Below are positions 13,320 through 42,240 of a stretch of DNA of 42,240 nt, piece after piece. The notes under the pieces were generated by a model that saw only the letters and a program-made list of their open reading frames with translations, did no database searches and was not told the origin of the DNA. The position numbers and the translations under genes are program-made. Within the stretch, counting starts at the first letter, position 1. Every line of letters starts with the position of its first letter. The stretch is taken from the UHGV virus genome UHGV-0128348. One strand, written 5' to 3'. This DNA is from a virus.

Positions 13320-13730
13320 ATGGAAATTATTTCAGTAATCGGAGTGATACTGACACTGCTAGGGCTCTTTATTCCGTCACTAATCAGTAACCATTCGTCA
13401 CGTAAGGCAGAGTTCAGGAAGCATTCCGCACCACTGCGGGGAAAGTTGCTAAGCGAAATTGAGGCTATTGAAGGAGGCTCTTATCCATTCAGGCTTATCA
13501 GCGATGCTGATTTCAATCAGTTGCTACCTTACGCCCCGAGGCGCAGGAAAAACGCTCTCCTTGATGCTTACACCAGTTATCTCGACGCTCATACGATGGC
13601 CACCACGAAGCACTGGCACGATGAACATCCATCCGATGGAATGCTATTTTTCCCGACGGGTTTCTCAGTCACTAATTCAGATGAGGTACTGAAGAAAATG
13701 CAACCTCTGAAAAAAGAACTCAGCAGATAG
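13320..13730 (+). CDS. hypothetical membrane-anchored protein (plus-strand cassette between lysis genes and late cargo)
   Basis: 136-aa ORF with N-terminal TM helix; opposite strand to the late operon; plus-strand terminator at 13929..13957. Confidence 0.5.
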   Translation: MEIISVIGVILTLLGLFIPSLISNHSSRKAEFRKHSAPLRGKLLSEIEAIEGGSYPFRLISDADFNQLLPYAPRRRKNALLDAYTSYLDAHTMATTKHWHDEHPSDGMLFFPTGFSVTNSDEVLKKMQPLKKELSR

Positions 13731-13957: not shown

Positions 13958-13961
13958 GCCC

Positions 13962-13986
13962 AAAGAAAAAGCCCACCGAAGTGGGC
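13962..13986 (-). terminator. rho-independent terminator (minus strand), convergent with previous
   Basis: Hairpin GCCCACTTCGGTGGGC followed on the minus strand by TTTTTCTTT. Confidence 0.5.
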
Positions 13987-14363
13987 CTTACAGCTATCAT
14001 CATTTTTTATTAGGTGTGGTGCCGGGTGCCTCCCGGTGAGCATGCCCCAACAGACATCACTCGCGTGGTATTCACAGGGCTTTCGCTCTATTAGTTGGAC
14101 GCCCCTCCGCATAGGGGGATTCACCACACGGATAATTTAGGATGTAGTCATGGGCGGCGTCAATAACTGACACTCTGTCAAAGGCACCATTACGATGCCT
14201 TTTGCACAGTGCTAATCACTGGCTCTAATAAGGGGCCAGAGCAAAGCGATTACCCCGGCTACCAGCACGCCATCAGCCAGGATTGACATCATTTTGCTGG
14301 TGAAGTCGATAGCAACCACCAGAAACAAAAGCACCCCAGCTGCGGCCCAGCGAAGTTTACCGA

Positions 14364-14789: not shown

Positions 14790-14920
14790 AGTGACTTTCC
14801 TTTTAGCGGGTGAGCCAGCGCTCAGGAATGATCAGCCCACAGAGACAGTCACACTGACTACTCCCTATGGCTCACCCCTGAAAGGCTCTGTGGTTTAATA
14901 GCGCCGAGCGTGGCGCGGAT

Positions 14921-14948
14921 ATGAAAAAGGCCCGCGAATGCGAGCCCT
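14921..14948 (-). terminator. terminator downstream of the two-gene AT-rich cassette
   Basis: Hairpin GGGCTCGCATTCGCGGGCC followed on the minus strand by TTTTTCAT. Confidence 0.45.
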
Positions 14949-15012
14949 AACAGCATGAAAATAATATGAATAAAAACCAGAACAAAGCAGATCTACTAAA
15001 CCATGTTGTAAT

Positions 15013-16302
15013 TTACAACTCTCGGTAAGCTGGTTGCAAAGCTTCACACCATTGTCTTAAAGTCGAAGCTCTTCGTTTCTTAGTTTTATCGCTAAGCGAT
15101 AAGCACATATCAAACAAAAAAGGCTCCGCCGTTGTGGGATCTAGCTCTGAAAGATTTTTTGCCTGGCTCCATTGTATCCAAGCCCAACCACAATGACTGG
15201 CCTCAAAACCACGAGCCGCAATTCTTAATCTCTTTTCATGATCAGATTCAGCTAATTGTTGTCCCATTGCAGAGATTGAACCATTTTCATTAAGTAAACC
15301 TAGTATTTTACCTGCGTGTATATAGTACAGTATATGGCGAGTATCCAACCCTGTACTAATTAGATCGAGATATATCCCCTTCCATTTTAACTCTACAACT
15401 TTAAAAACTTGATCAATTAAATTTGCTTGGGGCACCTGATAACCGCCAACAACCTGGGCAGACATCTTAGCCAAAGCTGTTGAGTAAAACTCAGCATCCG
15501 TTTTTCGAACCGTTAATACAATCTCATCTGTATAGTTATTTTTCAATTCAAAACTTGAACTTGTATTAACAACAGAGTCAAATAAAGCCGAAAGCATTTG
15601 AACATCAATCTTATTATTTTTAATAAAACTAACTATATCACCCTTAAGACGAATCAGATCATTTAGCTCTTTTAATAACGGCTCTACTGTCTGCATTTTC
15701 TCTGCCTGAAAAGAAAGCACAAAAGATCCAGGGCGACCCGCCACTGGTCGCATCAAGTCCTTTTCATCAAAAGAGTTAATTATAGATGAATATAAGTTAT
15801 TGAAACATTCGAATAATTTAGAAACACCACTTAGTACTAATGGGTCCGTAGATGACTTAGTTTTCTCCACATGTATTTCATGCGTTGAAAACTCAATTGC
15901 CTTGCCTATTTTACCATTAGCTAAAACAGGCAGTACAGAGCTTATAAACAATCCACTTTGTGGCAAAGTCATGTTGTTAGATACTTCAGACGAATCTAAA
16001 GCCAATGCTACAACACGCTCATCCTCATAAAAAATATCTAACTGATAGTATTTCTTTTGTTCTTGGTGCATTAGAACGCTACGAATATCTATTCTTTTTC
16101 TTTCCAAAGATTCTAAGCGTTCAGCAGATATAGGAATGATGATCCACTTTTCGAAGTCATCAAAGTCCCCTAACCAATAAACAACAAAGAGACTATTTAT
16201 CTCATTAGTCACTGAGAAAAATTTTGGACCTTCGAAAAACTCATAGACATTTTCGTATTTTAGTTCACCAAACACGCTGTCTTTAAGGAAGATGTTACTC
16301 AT
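15013..16302 (-). CDS. hypothetical protein, 429 aa, second gene of AT-rich two-gene cassette
   Basis: Long ORF with low GC; 4-nt overlap with upstream gene; no Walker A or other motif I recognise. Confidence 0.65.
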   Translation of the reverse strand: MSNIFLKDSVFGELKYENVYEFFEGPKFFSVTNEINSLFVVYWLGDFDDFEKWIIIPISAERLESLERKRIDIRSVLMHQEQKKYYQLDIFYEDERVVALALDSSEVSNNMTLPQSGLFISSVLPVLANGKIGKAIEFSTHEIHVEKTKSSTDPLVLSGVSKLFECFNNLYSSIINSFDEKDLMRPVAGRPGSFVLSFQAEKMQTVEPLLKELNDLIRLKGDIVSFIKNNKIDVQMLSALFDSVVNTSSSFELKNNYTDEIVLTVRKTDAEFYSTALAKMSAQVVGGYQVPQANLIDQVFKVVELKWKGIYLDLISTGLDTRHILYYIHAGKILGLLNENGSISAMGQQLAESDHEKRLRIAARGFEASHCGWAWIQWSQAKNLSELDPTTAEPFLFDMCLSLSDKTKKRRASTLRQWCEALQPAYREL

Positions 16303-16745
16303 TTATCCAACCTCCTTATACAAACGAATTTGGCATGAACCTGAGATTCGTTGTAAAGCCATATTGTGTAGTGAGTTGAATCAGGAGCTCCAGTTTTTAG
16401 AATAACACCGTCATTAGCTGCAAACTCACCCTGAGCAACAAATCGCTCTCCAATACCATCAGGAAACTTATTAAAGGCATTAATAATTGAATTTTCATCA
16501 GTATAAACTGATACGCCATAACAACATTTTAGCTTATGCCCTTTAAATTTTTTTAATCGTTTAGGATTTTCATCTTTCATATTCAAAAAGCACTGATCCC
16601 CTGGAGGATTTGCCTTTGTAAGACGAAAGAATACACCTGAAGCATCTTGCGCTTCCTTAGGTGGAGTGCCCGCAGGGAAGTCCGCGGGAAACGTTAACGA
16701 TTTTTTATTTTTTGTCGTTTGCTGTGAGATTTGAGTCATGTCCAT
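16299..16745 (-). CDS. hypothetical protein, 148 aa, first gene of AT-rich two-gene cassette
   Basis: ORF preceded by about 300 bp of very AT-rich sequence; no signal peptide; no recognisable domain. Confidence 0.6.
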   Translation of the reverse strand: MDMTQISQQTTKNKKSLTFPADFPAGTPPKEAQDASGVFFRLTKANPPGDQCFLNMKDENPKRLKKFKGHKLKCCYGVSVYTDENSIINAFNKFPDGIGERFVAQGEFAANDGVILKTGAPDSTHYTIWLYNESQVHAKFVCIRRLDK

Positions 16746-17058
16746 AATCCAAGACGATTAACAGAAAAACTGCCAATCACTTTGGTAAATCAGGACAATC
16801 CGTTGGCATTAGATGCAATATAGCAACAAGTAAACACTTCATAAATGCCATTTGGTTATATAAAGAATGACTTAACAACTCCATTTGTTATAAATGCTAT
16901 ATATTGATAGTTGAGCATATTTAGGCACTAAATATGTCCAATTACTGTTAATTGGCTATGTATATATTGAACCTATTCCCCGAGCTCCACATAAGTTCCG
17001 TTTCGTGGAGCCGATACCGACGGTTTTGCACCGGAAGAATCTTCGCGGGAGTATGTAG

Positions 17059-17131
17059 TGCTGGTTGACGGAACTGAACCGCCTACATCCTGCTTACAAG
17101 GCAGGCGCTCTCCCAACTGAGCTAACCCAGC
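17059..17131 (-). tRNA. tRNA-like gene, anticodon UGU (Thr), with non-canonical features
   Basis: Minus-strand cloverleaf: acceptor GCTGGGT, D-arm GCTCAGTTGGGAGAGC, anticodon stem CCTGC/GCAGG with loop CTTGTAA, T-arm GGCGG-TTCAGTT-CCGTC; G6-A67 mismatch; G at position 58; no encoded CCA. Confidence 0.5.
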
Positions 17132-18611: not shown

Positions 18612-18640
18612 CCATAAAAAAACCCGCTCGCTGGCGGGTT
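18612..18640 (-). terminator. late terminator (tR'-like) downstream of Q
   Basis: Strong hairpin AACCCGCCAGCGAGCGGGTT followed on the minus strand by T7. Confidence 0.6.
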
Positions 18641-18722
18641 AATCAACGTTGAACATACAAAGCCCATCGTTATAGATAAAATTACACAAAAGCGGCAACT
18701 TTGCAAGTAACGTGTCGCTAAA
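18641..18722 (-). promoter_or_regulatory. putative late promoter (pR'-like) with Q-utilisation region
   Basis: Minus-strand TTGCAA -N16- TAATTT between Q stop and the terminator; assigned by lambdoid analogy. Confidence 0.4.
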
Positions 18723-19553
18723 TTATGCGATATTTATCAAATCAGAAACCTTTGTCACACATTTAAGTTGTGAGTCGGTATAACTCTCTTCCTCAAAGCA
18801 TTTTGTAACCAGACTTTCATAGAAAGGTTTCCAGCTGTATCGCCAGGTTCGTTCTGGCAGACCAGGCAGCTCAGAGAGCATACCCCTGTAAGCATTTGAA
18901 GACTTAGGACGACTATAACCGCGGCCTTCACAACGTTTACATACTTTGTAGACAGGCACTCCCTGCATCTCTGACTCTTTACGGTCCAGGGTTTTTCCCG
19001 TACCGCCACACTGGCATCGCTTGCTGATTTTCCCGGTGCCGCCGCATTTGAAGCAGAGAACATGGTCAACCTCTTCCACCTGACGTTTTACTTCAAAATC
19101 CGAAGGTGACTGCCCGAGGTCTTTTGCCCATTGCGGTAATCTCATTTTGTAGTGGCTTTTTTCCACCATTGAGGTTTTTTTTATGAAGCCTGAACCAGAA
19201 CACTTCCTGCAATCTACGCTGTCAGCTGCAGACGAGGCATAGTCGTTATAAGCGAACCGAGCTATTATCAGCATACACAGCGGGAACTTCTTCCCTGCTG
19301 CTTTTCTTATCGATCGAGGCGCTTTTGATTTTGCATATTCAGCCAACCAACTGACGGATGCCTTTCTGTCGTGTTCGCTGATTCCAGCTTTACCCAAAAA
19401 CATTGACAGGCCTATTCCTGCCTCTGCCTGTGTCATCCCCAGAGCGGCCATTACATCTGTCACAGTGAGTTGCTCGCTGGCGGTTGCACGACCGCTATCG
19501 GAAATATGCATTCCTTTGGGCGCGAAAAATTTGGGAATTGATTCAATATTCAT
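18723..19553 (-). CDS. late antitermination protein Q-like
   Basis: ORF 18723..19571 begins with GTG; likely ATG start at 19553; paired CxxC motifs (CRKCSGSG, CFKCGGTG, CQCGGTG, CKRCEGRG); upstream of late terminator. Confidence 0.65.
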   Translation of the reverse strand: MNIESIPKFFAPKGMHISDSGRATASEQLTVTDVMAALGMTQAEAGIGLSMFLGKAGISEHDRKASVSWLAEYAKSKAPRSIRKAAGKKFPLCMLIIARFAYNDYASSAADSVDCRKCSGSGFIKKTSMVEKSHYKMRLPQWAKDLGQSPSDFEVKRQVEEVDHVLCFKCGGTGKISKRCQCGGTGKTLDRKESEMQGVPVYKVCKRCEGRGYSRPKSSNAYRGMLSELPGLPERTWRYSWKPFYESLVTKCFEEESYTDSQLKCVTKVSDLINIA

Positions 19554-36473: not shown

Positions 36474-36680
36474 ATGCTGAGCCTCGATTGTGTTCCCATC
36501 TCAACTTATTGCAAAGAGACAGGCGAAACCCCTGATGCCATAAATAAGCGCATCCAGCGCGGCGTATGGCGTGAAGGGGTACAGGTGCTAAAGGTCGAAG
36601 GCGTTAAGGAAAGATGGATAGATCTTAGTGAGGTTGCAAAATGGGCTCGACAAAATCGCCTAAACTCCCGCGCGGCGTAA
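36474..36680 (+). CDS. xis: excisionase
   Basis: Small basic ORF directly upstream of and overlapping integrase; start at second ATG with GGAG RBS. Confidence 0.55.
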   Translation: MLSLDCVPISTYCKETGETPDAINKRIQRGVWREGVQVLKVEGVKERWIDLSEVAKWARQNRLNSRAA

Positions 36681-37831
36681 CGATCAGGAAACATAGTACT
36701 GGGGAAACTATCAATATTACCTTTACCTATAAGGGGGTGAAATGCCGGGAACCTTTATCAAACCTTGAAATTAATAGCAAAAACATTAAATACGCCGAGC
36801 GAACACTCGGCGAAATTCACAATAAAATTGAGCGGGGTACATTCAATTATGGTGAACACTTTCCCCGTTCGGCACGACTTAAAATATTTGGTAATTCTTC
36901 AACAGGAAAAACGGTAAAAAATTATCTCGATGAATATCTTGTAATTTGTGAAACGAGAAAATTATCTCCCTCAACAATCGGCGGATATAAGAAATGTTTA
37001 AATGCTCTGGCATCACTTCACGTTTTTCCTGCCAGCGAATTAACACCTGCTGCTTTAAAAACATGGATCCAGAGTCAGAAAACGACATTAAAGACGATTA
37101 GGAACCAACTTTCATTCCTACGCTCAGCACTGGATGAAGCTGTGACTGATGGTGTATTGCAGATTAACCCTGTTTCACTGGTGACAGCCTCGCGCTACCA
37201 GAGTAGTAAAACCGAGGATGAAAGTGATTATATTGTTGATCCGCTTTCGCCAGCCGAGGTTGAAGCGCTTTTGCATGCCGCAGGTAACAAGCAGTGGGAA
37301 AACATATTCCGCTTTGCAATTGAAACCGGGCTACGTAGTTCTGAACTCTGCGCCCTCCGTTGGCGCGATATCGACTTTATCGGCAAAACAGCGCATGTGC
37401 AAAATGCCAGCGTAGTGGGGGTAATTAAGGGCACGAAAACTAAAGCTGGAACACGTAAAGTTGAGTTAACCGAAGAAGCCTTGTATGCCCTGACTTCTCA
37501 GAAGCCTTTCACCTTTATGAAAGATGCAACGATCTTTGAGGATCCTAAGACAGAAAAACCATGGGCGGGTGCCGATGCGATAAGAAAGAAAGCCTGGGTG
37601 CCAACTTTACGTAAAGCTGGGATCAGGTACCGTAATCCATACCAGACCAGGCATACGTTCGCGACCCGACATATAAGTCGTGGCGCTAACCTGTTCTGGC
37701 TGGCATCACAGATGGGACATAAAGGGCCAGAAATGTTGTTCAGGCATTATGGACGCTATCTGAAGGAGTATGACGGCAACACTGAAAAACGACCCAAGCT
37801 GGTCAGCGGTGGAACCTCAAAGGAGCCGTAA
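36641..37831 (+). CDS. int: tyrosine integrase (lambda Int family)
   Basis: 396-aa ORF with C-terminal catalytic region ...RHTFATRHISRGANLFWLASQMGHKGPEMLFRHYGRY...; adjacent att core. Confidence 0.85.
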   Translation: MGSTKSPKLPRGVTIRKHSTGETINITFTYKGVKCREPLSNLEINSKNIKYAERTLGEIHNKIERGTFNYGEHFPRSARLKIFGNSSTGKTVKNYLDEYLVICETRKLSPSTIGGYKKCLNALASLHVFPASELTPAALKTWIQSQKTTLKTIRNQLSFLRSALDEAVTDGVLQINPVSLVTASRYQSSKTEDESDYIVDPLSPAEVEALLHAAGNKQWENIFRFAIETGLRSSELCALRWRDIDFIGKTAHVQNASVVGVIKGTKTKAGTRKVELTEEALYALTSQKPFTFMKDATIFEDPKTEKPWAGADAIRKKAWVPTLRKAGIRYRNPYQTRHTFATRHISRGANLFWLASQMGHKGPEMLFRHYGRYLKEYDGNTEKRPKLVSGGTSKEP

Positions 37832-37993: not shown

Positions 37994-38090
37994 TTGCATG
38001 TGTGGTCATGATCTCTGTATGAATCTTGAGCATTATGTATCTTGTTTTGCACCGCGTTGCCTGAACGCTAAAAAAACAAGGTGCAAAAAC

Positions 38091-39338
38091 ATGCCTAAGG
38101 TATTGAAATCCCTAACCAATACCGAGATCGCTGCCGCCAAGCCGCAGAAGACCGAGTATATGCTGCGCGATGGCGACGGACTGGCGTTGTTGATTAAGCC
38201 ATCCGGCAGAAAGATCTGGTACTTCGAATACACTCCCCCGGCGCTGAAAAAACGGACCAAAATCAGCATTGGCCCCTATCCGGTAGTCACCCTCGCCATG
38301 GCGCGAGATTTCAGGTTGCAATACCGGCGTTTACTCGTGCAGGGCATCGACCCGCAGGCCCATCTGGAGCAGGTTGCAGAGGAGCAACGACTCCAGAATG
38401 AATGCACGCTGGAAAAAGTGGCAGAACAGTGGCTCAAAGAGAAAAAACGGACCAGCGATCTTAGCGAAGATCACGCCAAAGATGTCTGGCGCTCGCTGGA
38501 GATGCACGTCTTCCCTTCTCTGGGTAATACACCCGTTACCGAGATCCGTCCCAAAATGCTCAAGGAACACCTTACACCGCTGGAAGAACAGGGCATCCTC
38601 GAAACGCTGCGGCGGGTTATCTCACGACTCAATGAAATCTTCCGCTTCGCCATCTCCGAAGAGCTTATCGAGTTTAACCCAGCAGACAACCTGGTCGCCC
38701 GCTTTAAGAAACCGAAAAAGCAGAATATGCCCGCCCTTCACCCCAGCGAGCTGGGCAGGCTGATGCTGGCGCTATAGAACGCCTCTATCCGCAAGGAAAC
38801 CCGCTGCCTTATCGAATGGGAGCTACTGACCTGGGTTCGCCCCGGCGAAGCCGTCAGCGCCCGCTGGTGCGACATCGATATGAAAAAAGCGGAATGGCGC
38901 ATCCCCGATACTTTTATGAAGATGAACCGTTCGCACACGGTGCCGCTCAGCAAACAGGCGCTGCGCGTTCTTCAGGTTATGGAGCCCGTCAGTCGCCATC
39001 GCCCGTGGGTTTTCCCCAGTATCCGCAAACCACTGGAGCATATGCACCAGCAGACCGCGAACGCCGCGCTTATCCGCATGGGGTTCGGCGGCGAACTGGT
39101 CGCCCACGGCATGCGCAGCATCGCCAGGACCGCAGGAGCAGGTCATTTTCCCCGTGAAGTCCTGGAATCTGCGCTAGCACACCAGAAAGAAGACGAGATC
39201 GAAGCGGCCTACAACCGCAGCGACTATCTGGAACAAAGGCGACCGCTGATGCAGTGGTGGGGAAACTACGTTGATGCTGCCAGACGGCAGGCATTGCTCG
39301 GTGAAGAAGAACCGCTGCGGATCGTGGAAGGAGAATAA
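38091..39338 (+). pseudogene. P4-type (IntA-like) integrase interrupted by one in-frame TAG
   Basis: ORFs 37998..38777 and 38880..39338 share a frame; the frame is open across 38778..38879; only stop is TAG 38775..38777; N-terminus MPKVLKSLTNTEIAAAKP..., C-terminus ...YNRSDYLEQRRPLMQWW... Confidence 0.7.
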
Positions 39339-39339
39339 T

Positions 39340-39984
39340 GTGACCAGTCCCATTCGTCAGAATCTGTTTGAACGGGAATGCGATATGCCGCTGCTGGAAG
39401 CGCGGCATCTCGCCCTTCTGCTTCTCGGCCTTGATGCTTCCCAACCTGCAAACGCCCTACCGGAAGAACATCAGGAGAATTACCGTATCCTGCACGACGC
39501 CATCAGCCGCACCATCAAAGCCACAGGCATGGTCAGCGCCCCTGCAAACAAACGTATGTTCTATGCCGATGAGATGTTCGCGCTGGCCTGGCGGCTTATT
39601 GATGACGAACTCACGCCGCCAGAAATTAAGGCCCGCAGCCTGAAGGCGGTGATGAAACTGTCGCGTAACGGTCGTGGTCGCAAGTGGCTGAAGACGCTCG
39701 GCGACGACGCGCTACCGGATCTCACTGCTTCCGCACAACCTTCCCAGCGTGGAATGTATAAGCGCGACAAAGCGCGGGAGAATACTGCCCGACTCTGCTG
39801 GCTACTGGTTCAGCTACTGGTTGAGGAGACTGACGGACGGTATGGGACGTATGATAAACCAGCTTCGGATCGGATACTTCGAAAGCTGAAAATGCTGGCG
39901 CAGGAGCGGGAATTGCCGTCGGATGGGCTTGGACGGGGGACGTTTTATGAGGTGTTGAAGATGGGGCGGGTGAAGAAAGTGTAG
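39340..39984 (+). CDS. hypothetical protein
   Basis: ORF 39271..39984; likely GTG start 39340 with GGAAGGAG RBS just after integrase stop. Confidence 0.45.
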   Translation: MTSPIRQNLFERECDMPLLEARHLALLLLGLDASQPANALPEEHQENYRILHDAISRTIKATGMVSAPANKRMFYADEMFALAWRLIDDELTPPEIKARSLKAVMKLSRNGRGRKWLKTLGDDALPDLTASAQPSQRGMYKRDKARENTARLCWLLVQLLVEETDGRYGTYDKPASDRILRKLKMLAQERELPSDGLGRGTFYEVLKMGRVKKV

Positions 39985-40256
39985 GTAGTTGCTGCATAGT
40001 GTCGGGATGTAACGAACCGATTAAACTCTGAAACCGCCTGATGTATAGTTGGCTTGGAGCCAATAGCAGATATGAATGAATCGATTGCAACAGAATCTCC
40101 GTCTGATCAAGACGTCTTCAAATTCTTGAGGTTATAGTGTGTGGTGCTCAATGAATCGTTGCGCAGGAAATTTGACCTGCGGACCATTTCAGCTGCAGCA
40201 AAAACAGGTAGCGTATCAAATACAGATGAAATCAGGCATTATGCAATGGAGACAAG

Positions 40257-41048
40257 ATGATAGATGAGAGCGCAAAAACGATAGCCGAAAAGCTCGCTGT
40301 TCCGGTTTATGAAGATGCCCTGAGCCCTTTTGCTAAAGAATTATCAAAGGGGTTAGTCTCTATTGCCAGAATGGTAAATTCGGGAATATTCCTAGTTGAA
40401 GACAGTGTGCATGCGGTGACAAGCGTCTTACGGATGACAGCTGAGAATCTGGCATTATTACCACCCAAGCAAATTTCATTCGATCGGCCAAGGGTTGCTC
40501 TTCAGGCTCTAAATGAGGCCAAATTTGCAATAAATGAAGATGAAATACAGCGCCTTTTTTCAAATCTAATATCGGCAAGCCTAGACAAGAAAACTTCGGG
40601 GATTGCTCATCCAGCGTACATCGAAATAATCAAACAGCTCCAGCCGGATGAAGCCAGGATCCTTCGGTTTATGTTTAATAAAGAAAAGAATAGAAAAGGT
40701 CATGCACCCACAATTGATATTGTCCAACAAGATTCAAAGGATAGTAACTTCAGAACCACATCAACTACACCGGAAGTAAACCTAATTTGTGAAGATGCTG
40801 GTTGCGATATCCCCGAAAACTCATTTATGTATTTCTCCAACTTAAAACGATTGGGCCTGCTAACTACAACATCAGGAACTTCTTTCCCAAAGGAAGAGCA
40901 TGAAAGAATTTTCTCATCAGAGAAGGTAAAAGAAATATGCAGTGTAAATTCGCATCTAGATAGAGTTTCTTATAAAAGCGGGCAATATAGTTTTACAGGT
41001 TTTGGTCAAGGCTTTGTAGATTCGTGTATCGGCAGACATAGTATTTAA
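40257..41048 (+). CDS. AT-rich hypothetical protein, possibly Abi-alpha-like
   Basis: 263-aa low-GC ORF beside an integrase; N-terminal ...AEKLAVPVYEDALSPFAKELSKG... recalls Abi_alpha/DUF4393 (memory only). Confidence 0.4.
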   Translation: MIDESAKTIAEKLAVPVYEDALSPFAKELSKGLVSIARMVNSGIFLVEDSVHAVTSVLRMTAENLALLPPKQISFDRPRVALQALNEAKFAINEDEIQRLFSNLISASLDKKTSGIAHPAYIEIIKQLQPDEARILRFMFNKEKNRKGHAPTIDIVQQDSKDSNFRTTSTTPEVNLICEDAGCDIPENSFMYFSNLKRLGLLTTTSGTSFPKEEHERIFSSEKVKEICSVNSHLDRVSYKSGQYSFTGFGQGFVDSCIGRHSI

Positions 41049-41424
41049 CAAGTCAATAAACTGTGTCGGTTATTGAGGCCTTAACGTTCGCAATTCGCTC
41101 AGGCTGTGTAAAAATGTTTTTGATTGCAGAAATGGCCTAAAATAGAACTGAAAATCGCTTCCCTATGTAAAATTCGACTCTGATAATCAGCCGTTTGATT
41201 CCAGATTTTGCATAACCTCATGCATTCCAGTATTCGATGAGAGTTTTCACACAGCCTGCGCTCATAGCAGACCAAGTACCACTTCAGTAGGTCCGCTTTG
41301 TGCAAGATATATAGGTATTAAGCTGTTCCATTGGCTAACACACTATGATGTTAGTAATGTCTTCATTATCAATATGAGGGCATCCCCATGAAGAAGCGTT
41401 TTTCCGACAAACAGATCATCAGTA

Positions 41425-42240
41425 TTACTCCACAAGCGGGATAAGCTTTTTACCCGTATCTTCGAAGAATGAAAATGAAGCCCAGCGATATGTATATACC
41501 AAAGCAATCTTGCCAGAATGTGCCTCAATAACTTCTTTTAAATATGACTTACGTTTGCTGCCATCTGGAAATTTAGCCGAAAAGGTCACTATTGCTCGTG
41601 ATGATAGTCCGCCACCATTTCGCATAAAGAGAATAAAATCACTCCCTCTAAACACATTAAACTCCGCGCAATTTGTCACATCATTATCAAACTTAGCAAC
41701 TACATTTTTTATTTTGTCATAGAGGCTAACCATATCCCCAAAAATATTTCCATCTGCTAACTGAATATTTCTTTTATTTAACTCGGCTATATACCCATCA
41801 TCATTAACTTTTCCAATCGGGTATCGTGCCTGAAGTACTATATCTTGTGACGCAATTTGCAATAGCTTCAATTCGTCAACGGTTAATGCCAACTCCAAAT
41901 CAATAGCCATCCTATCAATCTTATGACCATAATCGCGAAACTTAAGATCTATCGTGTCTTTTTGCGCACCAAGATTCATTAAAAGAATCGCAGACTTTAA
42001 CAGCATTTCGAAAGCATACCCCAACATAAGCCTGCTTGTTTTATCTGTTGCTGATGCGATATCGATATATTCATGCACAACGGGAGATTTCTTACTTGTA
42101 GCCAGAAACAAGCTCTTGTTTCGATCACCTTCACTTCTCAAAAGCTTTGCTGATAAATACAGCTTTTTGGACTCTGTTAACCAAGCCTTACGATCAAAGA
42201 TACCTTTTCCATTTTTCTGCGTAATTATTTCGCTCTGCAT
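41425..42240 (-). CDS. AT-rich hypothetical protein (start at or beyond window end)
   Basis: 271-aa low-GC minus-strand ORF whose first ATG is at the window edge. Confidence 0.5.
   Translation of the reverse strand: MQSEIITQKNGKGIFDRKAWLTESKKLYLSAKLLRSEGDRNKSLFLATSKKSPVVHEYIDIASATDKTSRLMLGYAFEMLLKSAILLMNLGAQKDTIDLKFRDYGHKIDRMAIDLELALTVDELKLLQIASQDIVLQARYPIGKVNDDGYIAELNKRNIQLADGNIFGDMVSLYDKIKNVVAKFDNDVTNCAEFNVFRGSDFILFMRNGGGLSSRAIVTFSAKFPDGSKRKSYLKEVIEAHSGKIALVYTYRWASFSFFEDTGKKLIPLVE

Follow-up and report, generated by a model that had tools for sequence, protein, structure and literature searches.

What is the AT-rich pair of genes that stands between antiterminator Q and the lysis genes of the UHGV virus genome UHGV-0128348, and what could it do there? 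In the window, by which we mean the whole analysed stretch of 42,240 nucleotides, a sequence-only reading had singled out two overlapping genes, here called A and B, as a strong candidate for an undescribed anti-phage defence system or a late-expressed toxin. We compared both proteins with profile libraries, predicted structures, viral contigs and complete genomes. By sequence comparison the cassette is a sister variant of PD-T4-10, neither an undescribed system nor PD-T4-10 proper. We regard it as probable, rather than assured, that the prophage gained the cassette by horizontal transfer as a 'moron', and that its two proteins make up an abortive-infection defence system resembling a toxin-antitoxin pair; this estimate applies to the defence or toxin-antitoxin reading as a whole, and any single mechanistic step is much less certain. 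Defence is the best-supported reading, drawing on homology to PD-T4-10, conservation of the pair, the defence-island context of relatives and foreign origin, and that part of the earlier proposal stood; the word 'undescribed' fell to the PD-T4-10 matches and to the Pfam family DUF6575. The genes, their domains and the junction between them are as follows.

16299-16745, minus strand: gene A, a 148-amino-acid (aa) open reading frame (ORF); PD-T4-10_A homolog with a predicted ADP-ribosyltransferase-like fold
15013-16302, minus strand: gene B, a 429-aa three-part DUF6575-family protein, the presumed effector or toxin partner
15958-16302, minus strand: N-terminal beta-rich domain of B, about residues 1-115
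15448-15945, minus strand: middle alpha/beta domain of B, about residues 120-285, with an invariant G192-S193 motif
15016-15447, minus strand: C-terminal double winged-helix module of B, about residues 286-429; DUF7226-like, predicted nucleic-acid binder
16299-16317, minus strand: coupling signal, made up of the Shine-Dalgarno sequence AAGGAGG (16317-16311), an 8-nt spacer and ATGA (16302-16299)

A and B, both on the minus strand, overlap by 4 nt in an ATGA stop/start, as had been claimed. The Shine-Dalgarno sequence of B, read directly from the DNA, is located inside the 3' end of A; since this site is strong and is combined with the ATGA overlap, translational coupling from A to B is a fair reading. 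In homologs and in the output of gene callers A starts at Met3 (16739), giving 146 aa, and Met3 is probably the real start. The low GC content was likewise borne out, at 0.370 for the cassette against 0.507 ± 0.033 in other segments of 1733 nt (z = -4.2). GC at third codon positions was 0.29 and 0.31 in the cassette genes, compared with 0.53 in the flanking methyltransferase gene and 0.46 in Q. The low GC, together with the variable slot described below, supports a foreign origin of the cassette.

The cassette shares protein A and the N-terminal domain of protein B with PD-T4-10

PD-T4-10 was obtained from E. coli ECOR65 by functional selection (Vassallo et al. 2022, PMC9519451). It consists of two overlapping ORFs, of which B is toxic and is neutralised by A; A could not be deleted, and deletion of B abolished T4 resistance (PMC9519451). 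The phenotype is abortive infection and the system defends against T-even phages; HHpred detected no domain in either protein, and DUF6575 was among the domains newly tied to defence in that study (PMC9519451). A 2024 survey listed PD-T4-10 as 'unknown function'. The ECOR65 proteins have the accessions RCO36089.1 and RCO36088.1, and membership of the present pair was assessed via the PADLOC profiles only (PDLC04023, PDLC04024).

Protein A matched PD-T4-10_A (E 1.7e-11, 42 bits) between its residues 26-146 and profile positions 24-147 of 148, a distant relationship that covers most of the length of the small protein. Protein B matched PD-T4-10_B (E 1.5e-5) between residues 22-105 and profile positions 25-106 of 353 only. 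Across the family, the same models matched 31 of 33 A members (best E 4.2e-13) and 70 of 73 B members. In ten further relatives of B the alignment with the PD-T4-10_B profile stopped by position ~165, and profile positions ~165-353 never aligned with this family; the large protein is homologous to PD-T4-10_B in its N-terminal domain, the sole part that the two have in common, and not over most of its length. Because B covers only about 23% of the PD-T4-10_B profile, a PADLOC or DefenseFinder call of this cassette as PD-T4-10 is doubtful. Among the profile searches that the sequence-only reading had proposed, those for PADLOC and Pfam families returned PD-T4-10_A, PD-T4-10_B and DUF6575, and the PHROGs and NCBIfam libraries held no useful family for A or B.

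In architecture the two systems agree. Here, as in PD-T4-10, the small ORF comes first and overlaps the large one on the same strand of mobile DNA; A is homologous along its entire length, and B in an N-terminal beta-domain of about 100-130 residues. In contrast to PD-T4-10_B, the present B is longer (429 aa) and carries a DUF6575 middle domain and a predicted DUF7226/BrxA-like DNA-binding module. Profile coverage thus indicates that the family shares A and the N-domain of B with PD-T4-10, and not the remaining two-thirds of B. The abortive-infection mode, with B as toxin and A as antitoxin, is attributed to this cassette by analogy.

A and B are conserved as a unit across unrelated phages and in defence islands

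Conservation of the pair, a check that the sequence-only reading had proposed, proved strict. A scan of IMG/VR with the A3 alignment of A homologs as query yielded 31 viral contigs, and a full-length B followed immediately downstream in all 31. The Q proteins around these pairs were 33-99% identical to two Q references, and the holin/endolysin modules differed. The small gene was found directly upstream of a B homolog in Klebsiella, E. coli and Proteus prophages; the pair lies between Q and the holin gene in E. coli and between the lysis genes and the small terminase gene in Proteus. Even distant B homologs (23-29% identity) are accompanied by a partner of 126-133 aa that abuts or overlaps them, aligns with A and retains its motifs, and the order A-then-B, abutting or overlapping, held from 100% to ~23% identity.

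Two of the far pairs lie outside phages, in defence islands. One stands between two PLD-helicase genes (L019, 966-9473), and the other is accompanied by genes for LD_cluster2/DUF7008, a TIR protein, SIR2 and a HerA-like protein (L020, 3150-10347). The idea that the PLD-helicase neighbours in the first island share the C-terminal module of B was rejected, the module being absent there. In a degraded K. michiganensis prophage (CP026285; L001, 2802-8004) the A-B pair is intact. Upstream of the methyltransferase gene the Q region has given way to an IS3-type transposase and an integrase; A had been missed by the gene finder at this locus.

The family is rare. It was found in 3 of 5,426 complete E. 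coli genomes and on 4 of 72,556 plasmids, and tblastn searches with A and B gave no match in 50,697 GenBank phage records. At the DNA level the cassette is absent from the same E. coli genomes and from GenBank phages, where only a backbone flank of ~150 bp matches. Current annotation misses the cassette: in E. coli RefSeq genomes the pair is labelled merely "DUF6575 domain-containing protein" and "hypothetical protein".

Protein A has a predicted ADP-ribosyltransferase fold

The sequence-only reading had recognised no motif in either protein, and at the level of sequence this held for A. Not one of 33 members matched Pfam, even at E <= 10, and A had no match among the sequences of the Protein Data Bank (PDB) or to any curated ADP-ribosyltransferase (ART) family (RES, DarT, ART and others). 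Structure prediction gave a different picture. In a structural comparison the model of A displayed the split beta-sheet core fold of ARTs, its nearest neighbours including RES, ParT, MbcT and DarT, and its six predicted strands followed the ART order. The invariant polar residues of A map to beta1, beta2 and beta5, the three ART-motif strands, as R41 in 'FFRL' (beta1), Y76-G-x-S79 (beta2) and H125-x-T127-x-W129 (beta5), positions that were assigned from the predicted strands and not by superposition. On beta5, His125 occupies the place of the usual catalytic Glu, and neither the R-S-E nor the H-Y-E signature of ARTs is present; the equivalent of R41 is Tyr in one distant homolog. An ART fold is therefore predicted for A by one structural method whose scores were modest and whose hits were very consistent. 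Our literature search found no paper reporting an ART fold for PD-T4-10A.

Small ART-fold proteins in toxin-antitoxin-like, defence-linked operons are known from DarTG, Xre-RES (Res, MbcT, NatT), ParST and CmdTAC (PD-T4-9), which comprise two or three genes, the present cassette having two. There the toxin is the ART protein, with its catalytic residues retained, whereas A is the counterpart of the PD-T4-10 antitoxin and has His in place of Glu. The partner also differs, since B is not a macrodomain protein, an Xre-type antitoxin with a helix-turn-helix (HTH) or a SecB-like chaperone. One reading of A, unlikely but worth keeping in view, is that it and, by homology, the PD-T4-10 antitoxin are functional non-canonical ART enzymes, or sensors of NAD+ or ADP-ribose, with an R-S-H signature. 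Such a protein would control its partner catalytically or, as an A-B complex guided by B, modify invading DNA. A possible form of catalytic control would be ADP-ribosylation of the B N-domain by A, as in a type VII-like toxin-antitoxin system. If true, this would give the ART fold a role in toxin-antitoxin defence that has not been described before.

Protein B ends in a predicted DNA-recognition module

Protein B belongs to Pfam DUF6575 (PF20215), which it matched at 131.6 bits against a cutoff of 26.6 over residues 3-219. An exhaustive HMMER search with B gave 620 hits, about 80 of them full length (~430 aa) at 22-40% identity, and no sequence relative had a solved structure. A confident AlphaFold2 model built on 73 full-length relatives (pLDDT 94.5, pTM 0.80) divides B into three parts. 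The N-terminal and middle domains have no significant solved relative in the PDB by Foldseek and almost no conserved catalytic-type residues, and no nuclease-type residues are conserved in B.

For B, too, the absence of a recognisable motif gave way to structure prediction. In the predicted structure the C-terminus adopts the bi-lobed double-HTH fold of the BrxA/FokI-D1D2 type, and it is predicted to be a BrxA/FokI-like double winged-helix DNA binder; its conserved residues (Q292, R322, Y326, Y327, T407, R410 and R411) would fit a nucleic-acid-binding surface. Sequence identity to BrxA (BREX, DUF1819) and to the recognition domains of FokI and N.BspD6I is only 9-11%, and, unlike in those proteins, the module here ends a DUF6575 protein, with no attached nuclease or BREX operon. 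The same region scored 20.6 bits against Pfam DUF7226 (PF23871; cutoff 27), the relative P0159 scored 34 bits, and precomputed DUF7226 hits exist on many B homologs.

The module also occurs as a standalone protein, at the N-terminus of proteins with a PLD nuclease and an SF2 helicase, and beside an HNH nuclease. In these DUF7226-bearing proteins (P0166, P0192, P0201 and P0152) it is the same domain at 36-41% identity (E ~1e-29), and it sits where restriction-type enzymes carry their target-recognition domain. The PLD-helicase and HNH proteins have recognisable nuclease and helicase domains, whereas B has none.

A and the B N-domain would form a core to which different C-termini are attached

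Proteins that carry a B-type N-domain on other C-termini are still abutted upstream by an A homolog (hhalign probability 96-97%). One of them, P0188, has a C-terminus that matches the PADLOC candidate PDC-M63B and lies in surroundings of cyanobacterial type that include RuBisCO chaperone genes. In P0137 (residues 1-135) and P0188 (residues 1-130) the N-domain is tandemly duplicated. The resulting N-extension of ~140 residues was considered as a natural A-B fusion and rejected, since it is a duplicate of B's own N-domain (hhalign probability to A 0.1). At the P0137 locus (L055), the partner A matched PD-T4-10_A at 129 bits, and P0137 in its first domain matched positions 1-130 of PD-T4-10_B at 140 bits; from this matched pair it follows that the type of A goes with the type of the adjacent N-domain.

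These arrangements suggest that A and the B N-domain are a conserved working core, most simply a complex, with the rest of B exchangeable, and that the N-domain would be a docking or regulatory partner of A. The exchangeable part of a defence system is usually its effector. What is new, then, is a domain-level picture resting on predicted structures, in which an 'antitoxin' with an ART fold and a shuffled core of A plus N-domain are combined with a likely effector end that is a DNA-recognition module of restriction type. The 'antitoxin' of the PD-T4-10 family would carry a fold normally used by toxins, and the effector end of the present variant would be a module common to restriction-type PLD-helicases. 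A conserved core with interchangeable C-terminal parts also provides testable hypotheses for the whole PD-T4-10 family.

At the P0137 locus a gene for a RES-domain protein (an ART-fold toxin; 45-611) stands directly upstream of the PD-T4-10A-type small gene and P0137. This proximity could be coincidence or a functional link.

The cassette occupies a variable cargo slot in the Q-dependent late operon

Three further elements flank the pair.

16746-17057, minus strand: AT-rich upstream region, 312 nt, GC 0.37
17058-17131, minus strand: tRNA-Thr(TGT), called by ARAGORN; Rfam 58 bits
14927-14948, minus strand: intrinsic terminator with a 9-bp stem, 65 nt after B; phage-backbone element

Upstream of the pair lie genes for a DUF968 protein, antiterminator Q (Pfam PF03589, 151.6 bits), an 83-aa ORF and an N6/N4 DNA methyltransferase. 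Downstream lie a TerB-like gene, two holin genes and a GH19 endolysin gene, the Pfam labels of which were transferred from a prophage of the same type that is 96.8% identical at the DNA level. The position between Q and lysis genes beside a tRNA gene had thus been read correctly. A strong intrinsic terminator (18640-18621, minus strand) directly follows Q and is preceded by a promoter-like stretch, the whole element spanning 18621-18730; this pR'/tR'-like layout places the cassette inside the Q-dependent late transcription unit. A second terminator-like site is present near this element, at 18331-18314.

The AT-rich region upstream of A had been described as the cassette's own, as had the terminator after B. 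The region is indeed AT-rich. DNA similarity to the E. coli cassette (70.6%) is confined to the coding region (16646-15026) and absent upstream, which puts the AT-rich region outside the conserved unit. A strict sigma-70 scan of its 312 nt found no minus-strand promoter. A relaxed scan with a position weight matrix gave one moderate candidate (score 7.5) about 70 nt before the start codon of A, with the -35 element TTTATG at 16845-16840 and, after a 17-nt spacer, the extended -10 element TGcTATATT at 16825-16817. A near-palindrome at 16908-16944 in the same region has no counterpart motif in other cassettes.

The terminator is real and belongs to the phage backbone. It was rejected as the cassette's own because it recurs nearly base for base in a phage that lacks the cassette, Klebsiella phage 5 LV-2017. 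Together with the leader of the TerB-like gene, this terminator makes up a non-coding block of ~150 bp (14800-14953) that is kept at 85-97% identity in 102 of 5,426 E. coli genomes and in Klebsiella, Escherichia and Actinobacillus phage records, and that is never annotated. Possibly the block has a conserved regulatory role in the late operon.

Against phage Kp4866-6, whose backbone is ~96.6% identical, similarity breaks at 14830 and at 17127, and the Kp4866-6 slot is a 901-bp segment with an HNH-like ORF and no tRNA. Since other cargo lies between the same breakpoints, the slot is a true cargo site. The flanks of the variable segment were searched for an insertion signature and held only short repeats at chance level. 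The HNH-like ORF of Kp4866-6 has 111 aa (L015, 2313-2648), and the methyltransferase of that phage (3089-4168) is 359 aa long and differs in its tail. The window's methyltransferase has 349 aa, and the 3' end of its gene is overlapped by tRNA-Thr (17122-17131).

The tRNA-Thr lies within the segment that is variable relative to Kp4866-6 and accompanies the cassette solely in the Klebsiella prophage type of the window. It was rejected as part of the two-gene unit, not being found beside the pair in E. coli, Proteus or other loci. In position, adjacent tRNA gene, foreign composition and exposure to Q read-through, the locus resembles the lambdoid Q-to-lysis slot that carries stx, and it differs in holding a cytoplasmic two-gene defence-type system in place of a secreted toxin. 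The cassette would add defence cargo to this slot in prophages of Klebsiella and other enterobacteria, which bears on phage therapy against Klebsiella.

Proposed mode of action and alternatives

If the cassette works as a toxin-antitoxin-like defence system, A and the B N-domain would act as a core for regulation or sensing; translational coupling would keep the two in fixed proportion, and A would hold B inactive. A would most likely neutralise B by binding it, and could conceivably modify B or use its ART-like pocket to sense a nucleotide ligand. Infection by another phage would lift the restraint, either by loss or inactivation of A or by a phage trigger acting on the complex of A with the N-domain. 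Freed B would then act on DNA through its C-terminal module, blocking replication or transcription or occupying the nucleoid; action without cutting is proposed since no nuclease-type residues are conserved in B. Arrest or death of the cell would come before the invader could finish its cycle. For expression in the lysogen, the AT-rich region upstream of A would have to contain a promoter, and on induction Q-dependent read-through from pR' could contribute as well.

Several points weigh against this proposal. B shares less than one-third of its length with the validated PD-T4-10B, and its toxicity and the role of its C-terminus are extrapolations. Judged from its alignment, B lacks conserved catalytic residues, which makes a killing route hard to explain. 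The ART fold predicted for A is normally a toxin fold, which is awkward for an antitoxin. Neither promoter scan gave a convincing promoter for expression in the lysogen, the late-operon position would also suit a gene of benefit to the phage, and the family is rare in the genomes, phages and plasmids surveyed.

The unusual fold of A and the make-up of B raise the question of whether the roles are reversed, with A a toxic ART-fold enzyme acting on NAD+, protein or nucleic acid, and B a DNA-binding regulator, antitoxin or targeting subunit. The cassette would still be a defence or toxin-antitoxin system. Such an arrangement would parallel the HTH-bearing antitoxins that control ART-fold toxins in Xre-RES and ParST, and it would account for the invariant polar residues on beta1, beta2 and beta5 of A. 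B, with its predicted C-terminal DNA-binding module and its lack of conserved catalytic residues, would resemble many antitoxins, and a RES-domain gene adjoins one related pair. However, the PD-T4-10 homolog of A is non-toxic and neutralises a toxic B, and A itself has His125 for the catalytic Glu, matches no ART family by sequence, and has a Tyr at the R41 position in one distant homolog; the small-gene-first order is also the usual antitoxin position. We judge reversed roles to be improbable.

Just as improbable, in our estimate, is a module of addiction or housekeeping without an anti-phage role, in which the pair would stabilise the prophage or tune the timing of lysogeny and lysis. The toxin-antitoxin-like architecture, the location after tR' and before the holin genes of the Q-dependent late operon, and retention of the cassette in the degraded K. 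michiganensis prophage with its insertion element in place of the Q region are all consistent with it. However, relatives occur outside prophages in defence islands with TIR, SIR2-HerA and PLD-helicase neighbours, the only characterised homolog defends against T-even phages, and the pair moves across unrelated phage backbones and slots, as is typical of morons.

Being on the same strand as the late genes and in their transcription unit, the pair would be expressed late by Q read-through. A product that serves the phage is conceivable on this ground: A would modify components of the host or of a competitor during lytic growth, or counter host defences, with B targeting A to DNA. The predicted ART fold of A and DNA-binding module of B would suit such an effector, for which T4 Alt, ModA and ModB offer a comparison. 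It is nevertheless a very unlikely reading, given the homology to a host-protective abortive-infection system, the occurrence in non-phage defence islands, the absence of any relative from the 50,697 phage records and the lack of the catalytic Glu in A.

Stx phages carry their stx genes between Q and the lysis genes, and the same slot had suggested a secreted AB-type virulence toxin with A as ADP-ribosylating subunit, as in ArtAB, Plt and LT; this alternative is close to refuted, since both N-termini are polar and neither is hydrophobic or signal-like (translations inspected by eye), B is a 429-aa multi-domain winged-helix protein by prediction and not a pentamer subunit of ~12 kDa, the catalytic Glu is absent from A, and environmental and cyanobacterial-type contigs, as well as non-phage defence islands, harbour relatives.

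Other features of the window

The late region contains two further elements downstream of the cassette. Between the holin genes and the TerB-like gene lies a full-length Rfam match to the gammaproteobacterial small RNA STnc100 (13958-14152, minus strand; 96 bits against a gathering score of 47). The other element is an oppositely oriented ORF of 136 aa (13320-13730, plus strand), which is kept in related prophages and has no Pfam match.

The prophage integrase gene lies at 36641-37828, and beyond it stands a second, split integrase gene (37998-38774 and 38880-39335). After the split integrase, in the region 37998-42240, follows an AT-rich islet (GC 0.38-0.41) that holds an Abi_alpha gene (40257-41045; PF14337, E 1.8e-40) and a 271-aa ORF that has no Pfam match and reaches the end of the window. 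This islet beyond the prophage integrase is possibly a separate small defence island.

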